DNA of 64,000 nucleotides from Candidatus Lindowbacteria bacterium RIFCSPLOWO2_12_FULL_62_27. GTDB lineage: Bacteria > Lindowbacteria > 2-12-FULL-62-27. The notes below the pieces were generated by a model, which saw only the letters and a program-made list of their open reading frames with translations, was not told the origin of the DNA and did no database searches. The stretch covers positions 1 through 64,000 of the forward strand of contig MFPR01000020.1 of the NCBI GenBank assembly GCA_001784175.1, read 5' to 3'. This document shows positions 24,525-32,854 of the stretch, piece by piece. The translations under genes were made by a program, and so were the position numbers. Within the stretch, counting starts at the first letter, position 1, and each line of letters begins with the position of its first letter.

Positions 24525-24557
24525 TATTTCCCCTCTTTCCTTGCAGATAAACCCCGT

Positions 24558-24712
24558 TTATCCACACTTTCAACGATAATTTCCACAATCTATCCCAACC
24601 CTTTTTCCAGCGGTTATCCACAGTTTATACACCCAATGATGCACATATTCTACACACTGAAACATAAGCACTTATGATATTGGGTTCTTATACCAGCGCG
24701 AGGTTTTCCACG
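24558..24712. promoter_or_regulatory. DnaA-box cluster upstream of dnaA (second part of oriC and autoregulation site)
   Basis: Perfect TTATCCACA at 24558-24566 and 24614-24622; near matches ATTTCCACA 24579, TTATACACC 24625 and TTTTCCACG 24704, all in an AT-rich intergenic region. Confidence 0.85.
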
Positions 24713-24769
24713 CAAGTGTTTTTTTGAAATTCTCGGCATTTTCTCAACAACAAATTAGATTTCACTTGT

Positions 24770-25969
24770 TTATGTCGCGCCCAGCGCTTCCATCGGCTCC
24801 GTCAGAAGCGTGAGGACCGCCGTGTGATTCAGAATGGCCGAACGAACTTTTCGTCCGTCCCAGTGAATCGGGCCGATTTCGGCGAACCCGAAAAGGCCGG
24901 CGACGGGAAGTTCCGGGAAGAACTCGCGATAGGCGTCGAGATCGACATGAGGCCGGCCGTAAAGGGACAGTCCGCGCGCGCAGCAGTTGAAGATCACCGT
25001 CGCTCGTGGCGCCCGGCCGCTGAGGCCGCCGCTCAATCGTTCCAGCATCTGCCGGAACGTGCGCCTCGACCCTCTGGCGCTCCGGACGCCGAAACAGATG
25101 AATTGTCCTGCGCGGACCGGTTCCGCGACGGAGACATGCTGGGTGGCCAGCTCGACAGCGAGAATGCTTCGCACGATATATCGGCCTGCGATGTAATCCT
25201 TGAGGGAATCCGCGAGCGCGCAGAAGATGTCGATGCGGTCCTGCTGTGGGTGGGCTTTCCGCTGTTCCTGGACGAACGCCGCGAGGACGTCGGCGGCCGG
25301 TTCGTGGTCGATCTGCGCGATCCGGTTGTCCGATGCGCTCGTGATCGGCCGCGGCTCGGATTCTGGAAGGACGGCGTGGGCGACCCCGATGGAAGCCTCG
25401 ACGCAGCCGGCGAGGTGCAGTGCGGCGCAACCGTGGTGGGAGGATTCGCCGTCGGCCGCGATCGTGGCCACCTGGCTTTCGGCGGACCACCCGGCGGCGG
25501 CGCCGACGACGGGTGTTTCGGGAAAGGCGTGGGCCATGCGGGAAAGAAACCCGGGATGCAGGCTTCGCGGGTCCGCCGTCAGGAACAGGACGCCGCGTTC
25601 CCGATAGAGACTCGGCAGTTCCCCCCGCAGGTGCTGGACGGCGTCGGACCGCAGATCGGGCGCCATGGCGGCCCCCGCGGTGACGCGGTCGGAGGACATC
25701 AGGAGGATCGACAGGCCCGGCTCGCTTTCGACCTCGCCCCGCGGACCGATGATGCCGGCGCCGGTCGCGCCGAAGAGCGCCCGGATATGAATCTTGCTTC
25801 GAAGAAAATCCAGGATTTCCTGAAAGGATTTCGAATGATGGCTTGTGCCGAAGACCCACGCGGCGGTCGCCGCCGGTTCAGGCAAGGGCTGGACCGCCTC
25901 GCCGAGGGCCTCGGCCGCCGCCGCCTTCGAATCCGGGTTCAAACTCATGCCTGCGCCGGTGTGGATCAT
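24770..25969 (-). CDS. FIST domain (N and C) signal-transduction protein
   Basis: LFGATGAGII, ITSASDNRIAQID, YIVRSIL, FNCCARG, GLFGFAEIGP and NHTAV motifs. Confidence 0.88.
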   Translation of the reverse strand: MIHTGAGMSLNPDSKAAAAEALGEAVQPLPEPAATAAWVFGTSHHSKSFQEILDFLRSKIHIRALFGATGAGIIGPRGEVESEPGLSILLMSSDRVTAGAAMAPDLRSDAVQHLRGELPSLYRERGVLFLTADPRSLHPGFLSRMAHAFPETPVVGAAAGWSAESQVATIAADGESSHHGCAALHLAGCVEASIGVAHAVLPESEPRPITSASDNRIAQIDHEPAADVLAAFVQEQRKAHPQQDRIDIFCALADSLKDYIAGRYIVRSILAVELATQHVSVAEPVRAGQFICFGVRSARGSRRTFRQMLERLSGGLSGRAPRATVIFNCCARGLSLYGRPHVDLDAYREFFPELPVAGLFGFAEIGPIHWDGRKVRSAILNHTAVLTLLTEPMEALGAT

Positions 25970-26023
25970 GCGAGGATTATAGCAGAAATAAAGACGGCGC
26001 CGGCGGTAGATGAGGCGTTGCTG

Positions 26024-27598
26024 TCACTTTGGGACATTTCCCTTGAGCGCCATCAAAATGGATGTGCGCAGGCGCCCGAATTCGTCGTCCGACATGACCG
26101 GCGCCGCGCCGTCAAGGGAGATTTCCTCCTGCATATGGATCCAGTTGCGCCCTCTCATCTTCGGCACGTGAATGAGGGCGGGCAGGCGATAGACGCGCAG
26201 GACGGAGGCATACATCGGATTGCGGTACTTGCGGGACTCGCTTAACGCAAAGTCCACCGTGTAGGGCATGAAGGGTCCGATTCGGACGATTTCTTCCGGA
26301 CCCACTTCGACGTTTTCAACGGAGAGCGCCACATATCGAATCGGCACCCGATCGCCGGTCCACGCCGGAACGCGCGGCGCCACCTCCGGCTTGAGCGCAT
26401 CGTCGGCCAAACCGTCCCGGTGCGGCACCAGCAGGAACGCCTTCCCGGTCTTGATGCCGCCGGCGACGGCACGCAGACTGAGCGCGGTTCGGCCCCCGCC
26501 GAACGACTCGACCATGCGGTGATCGAAGAGATGGCCGACGGAGGTTTTGTCGGGAAGAGTTTCGTCTTTCACCGTGCCATCCGGCGACGGTGCGGACGCA
26601 TCGTCGGATTCGACCTCGGTCCCGGTTCCACGCCCTACGAACCAGGCTCCGCCTGCGGCGAGGGCGAACAGAATCCCGGCGGCGATGAGGACGGCCTTAT
26701 TGGATTTGACGCCGGCCGGCGCGTTGGACGAAACATCCGAGCGAAGGATGTCCACCGGCGCGCCGGCCGCGCCCGACAAGTCCTCGATCACGTGAACGGC
26801 CGACCGGTATCGCTTGCACAAATCCCGCTGGAGACATTTTTGCAGGATGCTGTCAGACAGCGCCGAGAGTTTCGCGTTCAGGTTTCGCGCGGGCGGCGGC
26901 GCGTACGATGGATTCAGAATCCGGGCGATCACCACGGTCGCGGACTCGCCGTCGAAGGGCCGCCGGCCCGTCGCGATCTGGTAGCCGATCACGCCCAGGG
27001 ACCAGAGGTCCGCCGGCTCGCGCACGTCTTTCGACGACTGGATCTGTTCCGGCGCCGAATAGTGCGGCGTGCCGAGAACTTCGCCCGTCACCGTGAAGTG
27101 CGATTCGCTGACCATGGCCGAAAGACCGAAATCCGTGATCCGGATGCCGCCGTTTGGCATCACCACCACGTTGCCCTCCGTCAGATCCCTGTGCAGAATC
27201 CCCTGCTGATGAGCCGCCAGGAGCGCCCGGCAGATTTCGCCGAACATCGCGCGCCAGGTTTCGTCGTCCGGAAGTTCCGTGCGTTCGGCGAGCCAGGCCC
27301 GAAGGTTCTTGCCCTCCAGCCATTCCATCGCAAGATAATAGCGTCCGGCGTCGATGCCGAATTCGTAAACCTTGGGAATCGCTTCGTGCGACAGCGTCAT
27401 GCCGATCCGCGCCTCGCGCTTGAACCGCTCCACAAACGCCTCCTGCTTGCCGAAGGCCGCCGGCAGAAGTTTCACCGCCACCGGCTTGCCGTCCTCCGGG
27501 TCCTCCGCCCGGTACACCGAGCCCATCCCCCCCGCCGCCACCAGCGAGACGATCCGGTACCGGCCGATCCGGTCCGGGGTTGATGGGTGGGCCGTCAT
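26024..27598 (-). CDS. membrane Ser/Thr protein kinase with a C-terminal DUF1802-like domain
   Basis: AGGMGSVY, VAVK, HRDLTEGN, DFG and GTPHYSAPE; TM helix AVLIAAGILFALAAGGAWFV; C-terminal FLLVP...LRVYRLP...PVMSDDEF. Confidence 0.9.
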   Translation of the reverse strand: MTAHPSTPDRIGRYRIVSLVAAGGMGSVYRAEDPEDGKPVAVKLLPAAFGKQEAFVERFKREARIGMTLSHEAIPKVYEFGIDAGRYYLAMEWLEGKNLRAWLAERTELPDDETWRAMFGEICRALLAAHQQGILHRDLTEGNVVVMPNGGIRITDFGLSAMVSESHFTVTGEVLGTPHYSAPEQIQSSKDVREPADLWSLGVIGYQIATGRRPFDGESATVVIARILNPSYAPPPARNLNAKLSALSDSILQKCLQRDLCKRYRSAVHVIEDLSGAAGAPVDILRSDVSSNAPAGVKSNKAVLIAAGILFALAAGGAWFVGRGTGTEVESDDASAPSPDGTVKDETLPDKTSVGHLFDHRMVESFGGGRTALSLRAVAGGIKTGKAFLLVPHRDGLADDALKPEVAPRVPAWTGDRVPIRYVALSVENVEVGPEEIVRIGPFMPYTVDFALSESRKYRNPMYASVLRVYRLPALIHVPKMRGRNWIHMQEEISLDGAAPVMSDDEFGRLRTSILMALKGNVPK

Positions 27599-28350
27599 TT
27601 CAGCAGATGAAATGCGTTTTTGTAGGGCGTAAGATCGAGATCCCATTCTCCGCTCCGCAGGATTGGGCGATTCCCGGCCGACACGATGTTGACAGAGCGG
27701 GTGGCTCTCCCCCCCAGAGATGTAAACGTCTCAATGCGATCCGGCGAGAGAATATCTCCCGGAATCACGAAAATGTCCCGAGACTCTTCATCATCGACGA
27801 CCACAAAATAGGGTCCCAAGTCCGCAATCGCGCGGGCGACGATCGGACTTAAACTGATACGATGGCGGATCCCCAATGACCGAATCGTCGTGCGATACAG
27901 GTAACAGTTTCTGTCACGGACCTTATATGTCCTCGCCGATCCGGGTATTCCAGAGAGAATCCGGTCCATCTTGACATTGAACTTCGCCCCAAAGAGCAGA
28001 TCATCCTCCGACATTTCTCTCATCTTATATGCCGGGGTTTCCTGCCCGGCGTCGGAGACGCCGGCACTTGGGGCCGCGGAGCGGCTGACCCGTCCGGCGG
28101 CGATTCCGGATGCGAGGGGAATGACGAGAAGAACCCAGACGGCCGCGGGCAACCGGCGCCGCGCCACCGACATGCGCGCCAGGGCCGGGCGCCATTCCAC
28201 ATTTTTTAAATCTCCCGTGCGCCACGCGCCGCAAGACGGACAGGCTCGCCCGGATTCGGCCGCCATGTGTCCGCAGGCGGGGCAGGCAACGGCCACCCCG
28301 CTCTCGTCCGTCCGTGGACTTTGCGGGATTCCCTCCGTCCGTCCGGTCAT
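27595..28350 (-). CDS. zinc-ribbon/TM protein sharing its C-terminal domain with the upstream kinase
   Basis: CPACG...CPSCG, TM helix, and C-terminus SGEWDLDLTPYKNAFHLLK; ATGA coupling at both ends. Confidence 0.8.
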   Translation of the reverse strand: MTGRTEGIPQSPRTDESGVAVACPACGHMAAESGRACPSCGAWRTGDLKNVEWRPALARMSVARRRLPAAVWVLLVIPLASGIAAGRVSRSAAPSAGVSDAGQETPAYKMREMSEDDLLFGAKFNVKMDRILSGIPGSARTYKVRDRNCYLYRTTIRSLGIRHRISLSPIVARAIADLGPYFVVVDDEESRDIFVIPGDILSPDRIETFTSLGGRATRSVNIVSAGNRPILRSGEWDLDLTPYKNAFHLLK

Positions 28351-28412
28351 TTCAGGAGATGGAACGCATTTTTGTAGGGCGTAAGGTCGAGTTCCCATTC
28401 GCCGCTTTGCAA
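27595..28412 (-). repeat. imperfect ~65-bp direct repeat pair at 27595-27660 and 28347-28412 (paralogous C-termini)
   Basis: tcatttcagcagatgaaatgcgtttttgtagggcgtaagatcgagatcccattc versus tcatttcaggagatggaacgcatttttgtagggcgtaaggtcgagttcccattc. Confidence 0.85.
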
Positions 28413-30032
28413 GAGCGCACTCTTTCCACCAGAACGGACTGTCGCATACCTGGTAGAACTTGTAGTATTCGCCCGGACAAATTTTTCCATTGTTTCCGTC
28501 GACAAAATGTTCCCGGGGATCACAAAAACTTCATCGAGGTCATCCGTTTCGACAACCAGGAACCAAGGACCCAACTTGTCCATGAGCCGTGGGAGGGCTG
28601 GATTTAAATAGACCTTCATTCGCCTCACACGTTCTGCAGATGCGGCATACAGGTAATATTTGCCGCCCTGGACCTCATATGTTCTCGCGTGCGTACCTGT
28701 TCTTCCTCCCACGCGAATTCTCTCGATCTTGAGATTCAGCTTCGCCGCCCACGGCAACGCGTCGTCCGCCGCCTGCTTTGTTGATATGGCCGGCGCGTCC
28801 ACTTCATCCCGTTGGTCATCCTCATCTGCAAGCTGGGACTCCGGCGCGTATGCCCTTTGCCCGCCCCCCGTGACGGAGACCCACCCGATGGGCGCGCCGG
28901 CGGCGAAGGCGGCGAGGGAGGCGATGAGCGCGATGGCGACCCGGCGAAGGCTCACGAAACCGCCGCCGGGGTCCGGCGCGGGGCGGGAGGACGAAAGAGC
29001 GTAGGTGCGGCCGCCGATCTCGGCTTCGATCACTCCCCGGCGGCCGATCTTGCCGGACCGTACGACCTGGCCGACCGCCCCTCGCGGAGGCGGGTGTCCG
29101 CCCGCCGCATGATGATGGCAGGCGATCTGCGCGTGATAAAAGACTTCGCCCGGAATGTAGGCGCGGTCTGACCGGTAGGCGAACGCCTGCGGAATCGGGT
29201 CGTCAGAGTCCAGGTCTCGCAAGAGATCCGCACATGATCCGTATCGGCCGGCCGGCTCGCGGCAGAGGCACCGCATGACGATCAGATCCAGTTTCTGGGA
29301 TACGCCGTCTTTGACCTCCGACGGAAATTTGATGTGGTAGCTGGGATTGAGCAGCGTCGCGGTAATGGATGCGATGTTCCGTGCCTCATAGGGCGTCCGG
29401 CCGGCCAGGATTTCGTAGGCGATGACGCCGATCGACCAGAGGTCCGACCGGGCGTCGATGGCGGCGCGGGACTCGAACTGCTCGGGGGCCATGTAGGCGG
29501 GCGTGCCGAAGTGTTGGCCGGTCATGGTGAGGGTCGCCTCGTCGACGAGTTTGGAGATGCCGAAATCGACGAGCTTGATGCCGGTTGCGCCGTTGACGAT
29601 GACGTTTTTCGGTGAAATATCCCGGTGGATGATTCCAACGCCGTGCGCGTACGACAGAATTCCCGCAAGATCCCGGATAACCCTCACCGCCAGGTCAGGC
29701 CCGCCGGAGGGAGGGTGAGCCAGGACCCATTCGAGTGACCGGCCCTCGAGAAATTCCATGACGACGTATCGGCGGCCGTCCACCTCTCCGTCGTCGATGT
29801 GCCGGGGGATGCCGGGATGATTCAGTTTTCGCAGCGACGCGCATTCCCGCTTGAACCGCTCCCGGAACCTCTCGTTCTTCGACAGATGCTGCGGCAGAAC
29901 TTTGAGCGCCACGGGCGGGCCGCCCTGCGGGGATTCGGCCAGATATACGTTGCCCATGCCCCCGTGGCCGACCTCCCGGATGATCCTGAAAGGCCCGAAA
30001 AATTCGACGCTTGGCGCGGGAGGCGGCGTCAT
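28347..30032 (-). CDS. membrane Ser/Thr protein kinase with an uncharacterised, possibly PD-(D/E)XK-like, C-terminal domain
   Basis: GHGGMGNVY, VALK, HRDISPKN, DFG and GTPAYMAPE; TM helix VAIALIASLAAFAAGAPIGWV. Confidence 0.9.
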   Translation of the reverse strand: MTPPPAPSVEFFGPFRIIREVGHGGMGNVYLAESPQGGPPVALKVLPQHLSKNERFRERFKRECASLRKLNHPGIPRHIDDGEVDGRRYVVMEFLEGRSLEWVLAHPPSGGPDLAVRVIRDLAGILSYAHGVGIIHRDISPKNVIVNGATGIKLVDFGISKLVDEATLTMTGQHFGTPAYMAPEQFESRAAIDARSDLWSIGVIAYEILAGRTPYEARNIASITATLLNPSYHIKFPSEVKDGVSQKLDLIVMRCLCREPAGRYGSCADLLRDLDSDDPIPQAFAYRSDRAYIPGEVFYHAQIACHHHAAGGHPPPRGAVGQVVRSGKIGRRGVIEAEIGGRTYALSSSRPAPDPGGGFVSLRRVAIALIASLAAFAAGAPIGWVSVTGGGQRAYAPESQLADEDDQRDEVDAPAISTKQAADDALPWAAKLNLKIERIRVGGRTGTHARTYEVQGGKYYLYAASAERVRRMKVYLNPALPRLMDKLGPWFLVVETDDLDEVFVIPGNILSTETMEKFVRANTTSSTRYATVRSGGKSALLQSGEWELDLTPYKNAFHLLK

Positions 30033-32854
30033 CGGACGGTCAGGAAATCCTTCAGGATCTTCATGCGCATTTCGACGCCGGCGCCGGCATCCAGAAACGG
30101 GCGAAGTTCGTCGACCGATCGAAATTTGCGGGACTTGCGTGCCTTCAGAATACCGGATATCTCTCCGCGTCCGATATAGGGAATTCCCTTGAACCGGGCC
30201 TCCGGCAGAGTGTGGACGTCCTGCGGCTCGCCCCACAGGCTCAGGAATTCCAAGTCAACCGTCACGGTCCGATCGCCCGGTTTGACGTAGAGCGCCTTCC
30301 GATATCGGGCAAGGCGTTCCCCCGCCGGTTCTGATTTGGGATTGTACTGCAATGGCTCAATCACCCCGCGAATAAACTCCTCCACATCCCCAAACGCCCC
30401 CCGGCGGTGGCGGTGCATCATGATCAGGAGCGGATCCCGCCACGTTCGGAGCAGGCCTGTCAAATCCGAGAGTGAGGCATGATTCAGATCCAGCCGTTCC
30501 GCAACCGACGTGACGACGATGAAATCTTTCAACAGATTCAGCCGGATTTTGGGATCCCAGGATGCGTCCAGCAGCGGCAGAAGGTCTTGAAATGATCGGA
30601 ACGCCCGCCTCTCACGGACGCGCCAGACAGCCGTTTTTTCGTGCCCTTTCAAAAGAGGCAGGTTGTGGATCTGATCAAAGGACGCGGTGTTCAGATTGAC
30701 GGGTTCATTCCACATCCGCAGAAACTCCGGATCAACGGTCACCGTCGCGTCTCCCGGGGCAACCATAAGGATGTCCCGGTATCGTTTGACCTGTTCTTGA
30801 ACCGTTTCCCTATGGGGCTTGTAGCCGACCGGCAAAAGAATGCCGTTGATATATTCATCGACGCTCCGGAACGCTCCGTGACGGTGGCGGTGCATCATGA
30901 TGAGCATCGCGTCCCGGTCGCGGCCTTTGCCGAAGGCGCCAATCAGCTCTTCGAGCGAGGCGTGATTCAAGTCGACCCGGGCGCGCCTGGAAAGTCGGGA
31001 GGAAGCCAGTTGTTCGGCATAAAATTTGTCGACGGCCTGCTTGTAGGTGCGGTCGAGCGTTTCGTTGCCGAGAGTTATAAAATCCAGCCACACCACTTCC
31101 TTGCGCCTCTCATATCCCGCCGAGGGTCCGCTTGCGGCTTTCAGCACGTCGTCCAGGCTGCGAAGCGTTCCTCCATGGGCGCGGTACTGCACGATATCTC
31201 CGGCAGTGCTTGATCCAATAAAGGGCACGGTCGCGAGTTCTTCCGACGATGCGCGGTTGATGTCGATCCGCCGGTATCGTTTGAGAAATTCGTCGTCGGC
31301 CGGCGCGGCCGCATGGGACTCAACTTTCAACTGGTGACGGTAGTTCTGGATGGCATAGTATCTCATCCCGGCGAGGATCGCCCCCGCGTCATCCATATTC
31401 TTGAAAGCCCCATGATTGTGACGGTAGGCCAGCAGAGACATGGCGCAGTTGTCGCTCAGGCCTTTGATCCTGACCAGGTCTGAAAATTTCGCCGTGTTGA
31501 GGTCGACGACGAGGTCGGCGTCTTTTATGTGTTGAGTTGTCGGGGTCGACGATTTTTGAATCGCCCCGATGCGGGAAGGCGCCGGCGTGACATGAGGTGA
31601 CCGGCTCCAGAAGATCGCCCCCGCGATCAACGCGACGGGGAGGGCCGACCATGCGACGGCTTTGAGCAGGCGCCGCCGTCGCGCGTGCCGGCCGGACTGC
31701 GATCGGGAGCGCGTCACGCGGCAGAGGGATTCGGCTCCGGCCGCGATCAGGCCGCATGCCGGACAGGCCTGGCCGCCGGCCAGTCCGTGCCCGCATTCGG
31801 CGCATGGGGTGTTGTTGTCCGTTTCGGTCTCCGCTGGCGCCGCGGTCAGGCGGCGGCTGTGGCTGGCGCCGTGGTGGATCAGTCCCACGAACCTCCGCCT
31901 TCCCAGCTTTCCCGCCTCATCCACGACCGCCCAACGACGGGCATGGGGCAGGTAAACCAGGTCGTCCAGTTGATAGATCCGCCGAGGATCGTACGTTTCA
32001 TCCGGCGCCGGCCGGCTGAGGGCCTCGATGACGGCGGTTGCGGAGGGGAATCGGTATCGGGGATTTTTTTGGAGCAAACGATCGACGACGGCCGCCAAGG
32101 CCGGGGGAATGTCCGGATTCAGGTCGAGTACGGCGGGCGGCGACAGGTTGGGATTCCCTAATTTCTGAATGACGACGATATTATCCCCTTCGAATGGGGT
32201 CCGGCCGGTCAGCGCATGAAAGGCCACCGCGCCCATCGACCAGAGGTCCGACAGCTCCGGATGGACGCCGGCGGTCCCAAACTGTTCCGGGGCCATGAAG
32301 GAGGGCGTGCCGAAGTGCTGGCCGGTCATGGTGAGCGTGGCTTCGTCGACGAGTTTGGAGATGCCGAAATCGACGAGCCTGATTTGGGATGCGTCGTCCA
32401 CAATGACGTTCCTCGGGGAAATGTCGCGGTGGATGACGCCCATGCCGTGCGCATAAGAAAGAATCCCCGCAAGCTCCCGGATGAGTCGCGCGGCCAGGTC
32501 AGGCCCGCCGGAGGGGTGCGCCAGAACCCATTCGAGGGACCGGCCCTCGAAAAATTCCATGACGACGTATCTGCGGCCGTCCACCTCTCCGTCGTCGATG
32601 TGCCGTGGGATTCCGGGATGGTTCAGCTTCCGAAGCGACGCGCACTCCCGGTTAAAGCGCTCCCGGAATTGATCGTTCTTCGACAGATGCTGCGGCATGA
32701 CCTTGACCGCCACGGGCGCCCCGCCCATCGGGGATTCAGCCAGATAGACATTCCCCATGCCCCCGTGACCGATCTCCCGGATGATCCTGAAATCTCCGAA
32801 AAATTCGGCGCCTTCCAGCATGGAAGGCCAGTGAAACAGATCAGCCGGGGGCAT
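30029..32854 (-). CDS. membrane Ser/Thr protein kinase with a zinc ribbon and six ComEA-like helix-hairpin-helix units
   Basis: Intact kinase motifs, CAECG...CPACG, TM helix, then DLNTA/DINRAS/DLNHAS/NLNTAS/DLNHAS-type HhH units; alternative start at 32821. Confidence 0.9.
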   Translation of the reverse strand: MPPADLFHWPSMLEGAEFFGDFRIIREIGHGGMGNVYLAESPMGGAPVAVKVMPQHLSKNDQFRERFNRECASLRKLNHPGIPRHIDDGEVDGRRYVVMEFFEGRSLEWVLAHPSGGPDLAARLIRELAGILSYAHGMGVIHRDISPRNVIVDDASQIRLVDFGISKLVDEATLTMTGQHFGTPSFMAPEQFGTAGVHPELSDLWSMGAVAFHALTGRTPFEGDNIVVIQKLGNPNLSPPAVLDLNPDIPPALAAVVDRLLQKNPRYRFPSATAVIEALSRPAPDETYDPRRIYQLDDLVYLPHARRWAVVDEAGKLGRRRFVGLIHHGASHSRRLTAAPAETETDNNTPCAECGHGLAGGQACPACGLIAAGAESLCRVTRSRSQSGRHARRRRLLKAVAWSALPVALIAGAIFWSRSPHVTPAPSRIGAIQKSSTPTTQHIKDADLVVDLNTAKFSDLVRIKGLSDNCAMSLLAYRHNHGAFKNMDDAGAILAGMRYYAIQNYRHQLKVESHAAAPADDEFLKRYRRIDINRASSEELATVPFIGSSTAGDIVQYRAHGGTLRSLDDVLKAASGPSAGYERRKEVVWLDFITLGNETLDRTYKQAVDKFYAEQLASSRLSRRARVDLNHASLEELIGAFGKGRDRDAMLIMMHRHRHGAFRSVDEYINGILLPVGYKPHRETVQEQVKRYRDILMVAPGDATVTVDPEFLRMWNEPVNLNTASFDQIHNLPLLKGHEKTAVWRVRERRAFRSFQDLLPLLDASWDPKIRLNLLKDFIVVTSVAERLDLNHASLSDLTGLLRTWRDPLLIMMHRHRRGAFGDVEEFIRGVIEPLQYNPKSEPAGERLARYRKALYVKPGDRTVTVDLEFLSLWGEPQDVHTLPEARFKGIPYIGRGEISGILKARKSRKFRSVDELRPFLDAGAGVEMRMKILKDFLTVR

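Follow-up and report, generated by a model that had tools for sequence, protein, structure and literature searches.

What could a bacterium perceive through membrane-spanning kinases whose outer parts resemble proteins that handle nucleic acids? The question is raised by a minus-strand operon in the genome of Candidatus Lindowbacteria bacterium RIFCSPLOWO2_12_FULL_62_27, an uncultured groundwater bacterium. The window that was analysed is a stretch of 64,000 nucleotides (nt) of contig MFPR01000020.1 (assembly GCA_001784175.1), and the part under study spans its positions 24770-32854. We use the working names K1, K2, Z and K3 for the operon genes and X for the domain that follows the transmembrane segment in K2 and Z. 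The source genome (4.4 Mb) is denoted G000, its relatives in the phylum are G001, G002 and G003, and C-numbers stand for contigs of G000.

Our reading, held tentatively and with somewhat less than even confidence, is that the operon encodes three putative single-pass Hanks-type receptor kinases together with a kinase-less zinc-ribbon transmembrane protein, and that their C-terminal domains, all of nucleic-acid-associated folds, would lie in the periplasm and sense nucleic acid by way of receptor clustering. An earlier note on this DNA had claimed that every domain beyond the membrane segment resembles a nucleic-acid-binding fold, and profile searches and structure models bear this out, predicting ComEA-type helix-hairpin-helix (HhH) modules in K1, a PD-(D/E)XK-like domain in both K2 and Z and an ASCH/PUA-like DUF1802 domain in K3.

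One architecture in four adjacent genes

The description of the locus as four translationally coupled minus-strand genes with a shared plan holds in every part. ATGA start/stop overlaps are present at all three junctions (K1/K2, K2/Z and Z/K3), the gene coordinates agree with those proposed earlier, and each of the four proteins combines a predicted cytoplasmic module, basic residues with one transmembrane segment, and a C-terminal domain. The gene said to carry only a zinc ribbon in place of a kinase is equally recognizable: the CxxC-x10-CxxC motif is visible in Z, where the Pfam match to Zn_ribbon_3 (E 3e-4, 20.5 bits) stays under the cut-off of 27.

The Pkinase model (PF00069, cut-off 31.7 bits) matches K1 with 139.2, K2 with 147.7 and K3 with 147.5 bits, and the kinase domains of K1 and K2 are 60% identical. 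The intact Hanks motifs attributed to these proteins are found in part. The VAxK lysine, the HRD aspartate, the catalytic-loop asparagine, the DFG aspartate and the APE motif are present in all three, but the Gly loop of K3 reads AAGGMG, having lost its first glycine, and the catalytic loops (HRDISPRN in K1, HRDISPKN in K2, HRDLTEGN in K3) have serine or threonine at D+2. The usual Ser/Thr kinase loop is HRDxKxxN, with lysine two residues past the catalytic aspartate, a consensus that none of the three satisfies. Of the genome's 19 kinases with a readable loop, 13 have serine or threonine at D+2; the twentieth kinase lies off the pattern used by the script. At D+4, where arginine or lysine is a tyrosine-kinase trait, K1 has R, K2 has K, and K3 has neither. 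Judged from these motifs, kinase activity is likely in K1, K2 and K3 but not assured, because the catalytic-loop lysine is replaced, and it is least assured in K3.

A single hydrophobic segment of about 20 residues is found in each of the four proteins, and topology was assessed from hydropathy and flanking charge bias. Lysine and arginine (K+R) are in excess on the N-side flank in four of four window proteins; counted over 15 residues on either side of the segment, they are more frequent next to the kinase or ribbon than beyond the segment in 15 of the genome's 17 family members, with two ties and no reversal. The segments of the family are Ala/Gly-rich, with a mean hydropathy of 1.1-2.6. The K+R bias toward the kinase or ribbon side therefore fits an N-in/C-out orientation and is consistent with a periplasmic location of the domains that follow.

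The ectodomain of K1 gives two profile matches over cut-off: HHH_3 (PF12836) at 4.7e-32 and 110.3 bits against a cut-off of 27, and the ComEA HhH model TIGR00426 at 64.7 bits against 53.1. The full-length comE model TIGR01259 reaches 99.5 bits, under its cut-off of 152.35. By these scores K1 holds ComEA-like modules but is no ComEA orthologue. Among PDB sequences, phmmer with K1 finds the HhH region of EEPD1 at 7.5e-10 and ComEA chains at 3e-3 (8dss) and 8e-3. Read by eye, the translation shows a (V/I/L)(D/N)(L/I)N-x-A cap at the start of five of the six modules and a degenerate sixth module. The K1 and K3 ectodomains, used as queries in word-indexed searches, returned themselves alone or together with one other protein (32% identity, probably the paralogue on contig C6); this kind of search is weak, as it missed known paralogues at about 50% identity.

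Domain X, whose copies in K2 and Z are 38% identical, has no match in Pfam or NCBIfam. Against 1.84 billion representatives phmmer returned six matches, of which three are genuine (Z, K2 and one paralogue); the other three were rejected as repeat-driven artefacts in long repetitive proteins. An AlphaFold (AF2) model built from five sequences has a predicted local distance difference test score (pLDDT) of 67 and a predicted template-modelling score (pTM) of 0.67. With this model Foldseek places the PD-(D/E)XK homing endonuclease I-Ssp6803I first (E 7.6e-4, TM score 0.52-0.57), with SPARDA nuclease domains, PvuII, DpnI, Hjc and RecU behind it. The Foldseek-independent search VIA gives I-Ssp6803I at a Z score of 7.9 (117 aligned residues, root-mean-square deviation 4.0), RecU/PrfA at 7.4 and Hjc at 7.1, with D212 and PvuII in the next rows and the top ten made up entirely of PD-(D/E)XK-fold nucleases and resolvases. 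The ESM Atlas returned unnamed clusters only, and PDDEXK-type families at a score of 0.80. Profiles of X and DUF1802 run against PDB sequences found nothing credible, the matches to Noc at E 0.004-0.006 covering part of the profile.

The model thus points to a PD-(D/E)XK-like fold for X, with an alpha-beta-beta-beta-alpha-beta core, at medium confidence; the assignment is probable and not certain, because the VIA Z scores lie in the range that the tool calls common. The earlier claim that such a domain occurs twice, in K2 and in Z, is thus supported by a model of medium confidence. As it has no conserved D...(D/E)xK, X is probably non-catalytic, and we file it as PD-(D/E)XK-like and not as a nuclease.

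The third type of ectodomain belongs to K3, which matches DUF1802 (PF08819) with 39.3 bits against a cut-off of 25 over profile positions 10-172 of 174, and with 42.2 bits in the genome search. Its AF2 model, from 14 sequences, reaches a pLDDT of 89 and a pTM of 0.86. VIA aligns this model with 6kir (mouse CXorf40A, Z score 9.9), 5guq (Zymomonas ASCH, 9.4), 9kyk (human TRIP4 ASCH, 8.1) and 9kyf (E. coli YqfB, 8.0), and the structures matched include TRIP4 ASCH bound to double-stranded DNA and the ASCH protein of Zymomonas mobilis (ZmASCH). Foldseek assigns a probability of 1.0 to 2dp9 and ZmASCH, and weaker structural matches comprise YTH, EVE-like and McrB-N readers of modified bases. Structure prediction followed by Foldseek, which the earlier note had proposed as a check, hence leads to I-Ssp6803I first for X and to the ASCH family for K3. 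On the strength of the model, DUF1802 is an ASCH/PUA-like barrel, and the family gains from K3 both a fold and a context.

Relatives of K3 show further domain combinations. The K3-like protein of G001 (L024:7597-9414, plus strand) has a BRCT domain past DUF1802 (Pfam 5.1e-8). In the K3-like paralogue on contig C33 (C33:72493-74352, minus strand) BRCT is seen by eye only and goes unreported by Pfam at E <= 0.001, and K3 of the window is without it. A genome of another phylum (G054) encodes a protein of 484 amino acids (aa) with an N-terminal DUF1802 (1.1e-36) and a C-terminal half that by eye resembles a restriction-endonuclease domain of Mrr-like type (L020:577-2028, minus strand); the gene upstream (L020:2034-3467, minus strand; 478 aa) has no Pfam match. 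This pair may be a modification-dependent restriction system with DUF1802 as its reader.

The kinase family across the lineage and the site of the operon

The window operon has a larger paralogue in the same genome, a kinase/PP2C island at 63.5-89 kb of contig C33. The island contains at least 10 further kinases of the same plan and one Z-like protein, as well as two kinase-less zinc-ribbon/transmembrane/HhH proteins, a pair of PP2C phosphatases and an FHA-GAF-cyclase, and another K1-like gene lies on C6. The kinase-less forms of the family share the ribbon-transmembrane-domain plan. The cyclase, an FHA-GAF-adenylate/guanylate cyclase, stands at the edge of the island (C33:61430-63136, equal to L009:1430-3136, plus strand). 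Across the genome 20 Pkinase matches exceed the cut-off, and 12 of these 20 kinase frames carry a nucleic-acid-type ectodomain (8 HHH_3, 3 DUF1802, 1 X), the rest having TPR or other C-terminal regions.

A small paralogue of 421 aa has a canonical two-HhH ComEA domain with both motifs intact. Its closest matches in a search limited to proteins of 231-737 aa are ComEA-named proteins, to which this domain is 45-63% identical, and just one of the 66 matches (61% identity, probably of the same lineage) also contains Pkinase. The ESM Atlas, queried with the small kinase-HhH paralogue, gave generic kinase clusters only. One K2-like kinase of C33, which has only 30 residues past the membrane segment, adjoins the X-carrying Z-like protein; this suggests that kinase and X are able to act when they are on separate chains.

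The search at the level of the phylum covered four genomes of one family. X is present in two of them, G000 and G001, and the G001 cluster was the only locus found when genome contigs were searched with an alignment of X. DUF1802 fused to a kinase occurs in the same two genomes, standalone DUF1802 in all four, and HHH_3 is expanded in all four. G001, which represents a second genus, has K2-like, Z-like and K3-like genes in the same order and with 4-nt ATGA overlaps, and the island around them also contains more kinase-HhH genes, two genes for PP2C and one PLD-like gene; its Z-like protein bears a divergent X (22% identity). K2 and K3 are about 50-55% identical to their C33 paralogues and likewise to the G001 proteins, so the operon copy is old. 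The PLD-like gene (L024:3665-4732, plus strand; PLDc_2 1.7e-45) lies between a PP2C gene and the K2-like kinase; the PLD family comprises lipid enzymes and also nucleases.

A kinase and HHH_3 share one frame in eight genes of G000, about five of G001 (by coordinates) and one of G002; none was detected in G003, which is 88% complete, nor in any of five unrelated genomes with expanded HHH_3 (8-19 matches). Within the genomes searched, the fusion is therefore peculiar to this lineage. The source genome as a whole has 32 HHH_3 matches and four ComEC-like genes; genomes in a sample of 201 mostly have only 1-3 HHH_3 matches (E <= 1e-6). The ComEC-like (Competence domain) genes are located at C2:40213-41013, C33:5529-6524, C26:72044-73000 and C28:20369-21460. 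The one on C2 adjoins a small HHH_3 gene, and C26 also holds a frame of 2229 aa with several HhH modules.

The FIST gene follows K3 after 54 nt and encodes FIST_N (83.6 bits) and FIST_C (63.3 bits), both over their cut-offs (PF08495 and PF10442). Past it, on the same strand, come dnaA, dnaN and a recF-like frame. The proposed position beside oriC is reasonable, because the FIST-dnaA spacer contains two perfect DnaA boxes and the cumulative GC skew reaches its minimum at about 20-30 kb of the window. A DnaA box with one mismatch (TGATCCACA; 25960-25968, minus strand) overlaps the FIST start codon, possibly by chance, as the window has 7 matches against 4.1 expected.

The origin and FIST nonetheless do not belong to the kinase system, although the earlier note had presented them together with it. 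In G001, G002 and G003 alike, dnaN-dnaA-FIST is followed directly by a divergent TPR gene and then mreB. It follows that the kinase operon (6.8 kb) was inserted between FIST and the TPR gene in this genus only, which leaves FIST and the origin as incidental neighbours. FIST was accordingly rejected as a sensor partner of the kinase module, being an ancestral neighbour of dnaA in three genera that lack the kinases there. The note also gave FIST a promoter of its own. A sigma-70 scan of the window found none on the minus strand, but three genera conserve a TTTCTGCTATA(A/G/T) motif that lies immediately ahead of the FIST start and would fit a separate expression signal.

The arrangement is not an assembly chimera, since contigs of three metagenome runs (none flagged as a possible source) span the FIST/K3, K3/Z, K2/Z and K1/TPR junctions, and those of one of these runs span K1/K2. 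Among RNA runs, none is listed for the stretch. A dispersed palindromic repeat, about 47-54 nt long and including an 8-bp palindrome (CCGGCGTC...GACGCCGG), has one copy inside Z, at 28046-28099, where it is in frame in the linker after the transmembrane segment and is translated as ...SAAPSAGVSDAGQ... The repeat gives 63 blastn-short rows in the genome, the Z copy included, others being at C33:70022-70068, C33:71425-71503 and C33:63051-63104, and two C33 kinases hold peptides similar to the one it encodes in Z. At this repeat metagenome contigs break and depth climbs about tenfold.

Table 1. Positions, in the window, of the operon genes, their predicted domains and the adjacent features
Feature	Position	Strand	Remarks
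K1	30029-32854	minus	941 aa: kinase, CxxC-x10-CxxC zinc ribbon, transmembrane segment, six ComEA-like HhH modules
K1 kinase domain	32045-32788	minus	Pkinase 2.1e-40
K1 zinc ribbon CxxC-x10-CxxC	~31745-31804	minus	between kinase and transmembrane segment
K1 transmembrane helix	~31610-31669	minus	by hydropathy
K1 HhH ectodomain	30032-31567	minus	six ComEA-like modules in three super-repeats
K2	28347-30032	minus	561 aa: kinase, transmembrane segment, domain X
K2 kinase domain	29238-29987	minus	Pkinase 5.6e-43
K2 transmembrane helix	~28881-28940	minus	by hydropathy
X of K2	28350-28799	minus	~150 residues
Z	27595-28350	minus	251 aa: zinc ribbon, transmembrane segment, domain X; no kinase domain
Z zinc ribbon CxxC-x10-CxxC	~28225-28290	minus	motif by sight
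Z transmembrane helix	~28093-28152	minus	by hydropathy
X of Z	27598-28053	minus	~150 residues
K3	26024-27598	minus	524 aa: kinase, transmembrane segment, DUF1802/ASCH-like ectodomain
K3 kinase domain	26807-27553	minus	Pkinase 6.5e-43
K3 transmembrane helix	~26636-26695	minus	by hydropathy
K3 DUF1802/ASCH-like domain	26066-26509	minus	DUF1802 7.9e-10
FIST gene	24770-25969	minus	399 aa, FIST_N+FIST_C (Pfam)
FIST-dnaA intergenic region, 245 bp	24525-24769		two perfect DnaA boxes, 24558-24566 and 24614-24622

Proposed nucleic-acid sensing and its alternatives

How might such receptors work? We infer a ligand, a clustering step and an output. Polymeric nucleic acid in the periplasm or outside the cell, most likely DNA, would be bound by several ectodomains at once and would thereby cluster the receptors, whose kinase domains could then trans-phosphorylate their own Thr-rich activation loops. 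Phospho-binding partners in the cytoplasm would read the signal, and the PP2C phosphatases of the sister island would reset it. A candidate output is the FHA-GAF-cyclase at the edge of that island, which would act in a phospho-threonine-dependent manner, and Z, with its K2-type ectodomain and no kinase, might serve as a co-receptor or a decoy. The likely physiological context would be the control of DNA uptake or DNA foraging, given the four ComEC-like genes and 32 HHH_3 matches of the genome.

That the ectodomains sense DNA is plausible on the evidence of the predicted folds. Nucleic-acid folds in the same position across 12 of 20 kinases, the K+R bias and the K2-Z-K3 order kept in a second genus all support it, as do the canonical ComEA domain of the small paralogue, BRCT in G001, the expanded DNA-uptake genes, and DUF1802 joined in another phylum to a half that by eye resembles a restriction endonuclease. 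A wider proposal is that most receptor kinases of the phylum are direct transmembrane nucleic-acid sensors, whose ComEA-type, nuclease-like, ASCH-like and BRCT ectodomains would register the presence, ends or modification of periplasmic DNA and would, through phosphorylation, steer uptake or foraging by way of the four ComEC paralogues; it is possible, but we hold it with more doubt.

Several observations weigh against nucleic-acid sensing. Three of the four ectodomains look degenerate. In K1 the G-x-G hairpin is kept in only two of the six HhH modules, as read by eye from the translation, the best HHH_3 stretch spans profile positions 4-48 of 65, and the same stretches match the T2SSK and PsbU models, whose whole-protein scores come close to their cut-offs or fall under them; HhH_3-like folds are found, too, in extracytoplasmic proteins for which no DNA binding is known. 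For X, the pLDDT is only 67 and the best VIA Z score, 7.9, is of the common range, and in the five-sequence alignment the invariant columns are mostly hydrophobic and include no D...(D/E)xK. Kinase-fused copies of DUF1802 have lost LRKGG and GGCxSW, two motifs that its standalone form conserves. The earlier note had named non-basic ectodomains as evidence against DNA binding, and here the findings diverge: the HhH ectodomains of the family are basic (isoelectric point, pI, 8.6-9.9), but those of K2 and K3 are not (pI 6.2 and 6.6), the ectodomain pI being mixed (6.2 to 9.5). To these points we add that the topology is drawn from hydropathy and charge bias and that the catalytic-loop lysine is replaced in all three kinases.

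Much of this would be expected if nucleic-acid folds had been re-used for another ligand or for protein contacts, the kinases being ordinary envelope or nutrient sensors with DNA uninvolved. The degenerate hairpins and partial profile coverage of K1, the absent triad of X, the missing motifs of fused DUF1802, the near-neutral ectodomains of K2 and K3 and the T2SSK and PsbU matches are all compatible with such re-use. We regard it as unlikely, though less so than the other alternatives. Against it, four nucleic-acid-associated folds (HhH, PD-(D/E)XK-like, ASCH-like and BRCT) recur at one position in the family, some paralogues keep a canonical ComEA domain, and the HhH ectodomains are basic.

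It is also conceivable, if improbable, that the proteins belong, tethered to the membrane, to a machine for DNA uptake or foraging, in which their ComEA-like and nuclease-like domains hold or process incoming DNA while the kinase regulates locally and sends no signal to gene expression. ComEA is the periplasmic DNA receptor of competence systems, and this established role, together with the ComEC-like genes and the HHH_3 expansion in the source genome and in all four genomes of the phylum, accords with such a machine. However, neither kinase cluster was seen to have a ComEC, pilus or DprA gene next to it, X seems to be non-catalytic, and the islands carry PP2C phosphatases and an FHA-GAF-cyclase, which are typical of signalling.

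Should the hydrophobic segment not span the membrane, the C-terminal domains would be cytoplasmic and might tether the kinases to chromosomal DNA. BRCT, ASCH-like and PD-(D/E)XK domains are usually cytoplasmic, standalone short-frame DUF1802, presumably cytoplasmic too, occurs in all four genomes of the phylum, and the segments are Ala/Gly-rich with the mean hydropathy given above. Yet every member has a hydrophobic segment of about 20 residues with K+R on the kinase side in 15 of 17 cases and never the reverse, ComEA-type domains are natively extracytoplasmic, and the kinase-less forms keep the ribbon-transmembrane-domain plan, all of which makes a chromosomal tether very improbable. Least probable of all is the defence role that the earlier note had entertained. 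On the analogy of Stk2, PD-T4-6, PglW and Mad6, the kinases would sense phage DNA as it is injected into the periplasm. PADLOC models for PD-T4-6, mad6, PglW and Stk2 do match the kinases, and the clusters are paralogous and variable, with the window copy inserted in one genus. But the matches cover mostly about residues 10-300, essentially the generic kinase domain (one PD-T4-6 model extends to about 420 in K1 and K2), score similarly to PknB-type models and leave Z and FIST unmatched. The neighbourhood showed neither a methylase nor a nuclease effector nor any further partner of the kind found in defence systems, and the K2-Z-K3 core is about 50% identical across genera, unlike typical defence islands.

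Comparison with known systems

Bacterial receptor kinases usually carry PASTA, TPR, WD40, FGE-sulfatase and other ectodomains. The earlier note had stated that no system with the present plan is described, and our full-text literature searches agree: in the titles and abstract openings they returned, no description of kinase-ComEA, of kinase-DUF1802 or of DNA-binding kinase ectodomains was found. Bacterial perception of extracellular DNA is largely obscure, DNA uptake usually being switched on by indirect cues, and no receptor is known to us that would bind extracellular DNA and pass a signal through the membrane.

Among defence kinases, Stk2, PD-T4-6, PglW and Mad6 share with the operon a Hanks kinase domain, matched by PADLOC and NCBIfam models. 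The matches are essentially confined to the kinase, all NCBIfam scores fall under their cut-offs, and the partner genes of those systems were not seen.

Each ectodomain has its own closest counterpart, related but in no case orthologous at the level of the whole protein. K1 resembles ComEA in passing the HHH_3 and TIGR00426 cut-offs and in being membrane-anchored with the HhH domain outside, as predicted for K1; ComEA has no kinase, whereas K1 has six modules, mostly of half length. For the predicted fold of X, two independent searches put PD-(D/E)XK nucleases like I-Ssp6803I, Hjc and RecU first, but X differs from them in having no sequence-level membership and no catalytic D...(D/E)xK, and in following a transmembrane segment, so that it probably lies outside the cytoplasm. 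The K3 domain passes the DUF1802 cut-off and models as the barrel of ASCH/PUA-like proteins (TRIP4 ASCH, ZmASCH, YqfB, EOLA1). Known members of that group are soluble cytoplasmic or nuclear proteins, unlike the K3 domain, which follows a transmembrane segment on a kinase and has lost the family motifs.

In overall design the operon kinases come close to the PASTA kinases PknB and Stk1, with an N-terminal Hanks kinase, one transmembrane segment and a repeated extracytoplasmic domain of ligand-binding type. The PknB_PASTA model of NCBIfam gives them 217-248 bits over the kinase part, far under its equivalog cut-off of 450 bits. They are without PASTA, bearing HhH, PD-(D/E)XK-like or ASCH-like ectodomains instead, and their catalytic loops have S or T where PknB has lysine. 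Ligand-driven clustering is the accepted activation mechanism of PknB, and the activation proposed here would be of the same kind.

The operon thus joins well-understood signalling domains to ectodomains of DNA-binding type, which makes the perception of extracellular DNA testable with recombinant ectodomains and kinase assays. If the proposed sensing is real, it would widen the known range of sensor domains of bacterial Hanks-type kinases, and these proteins would be the first direct receptor kinases for extracellular DNA in bacteria, a bacterial counterpart of nucleic-acid receptors such as TLR9.

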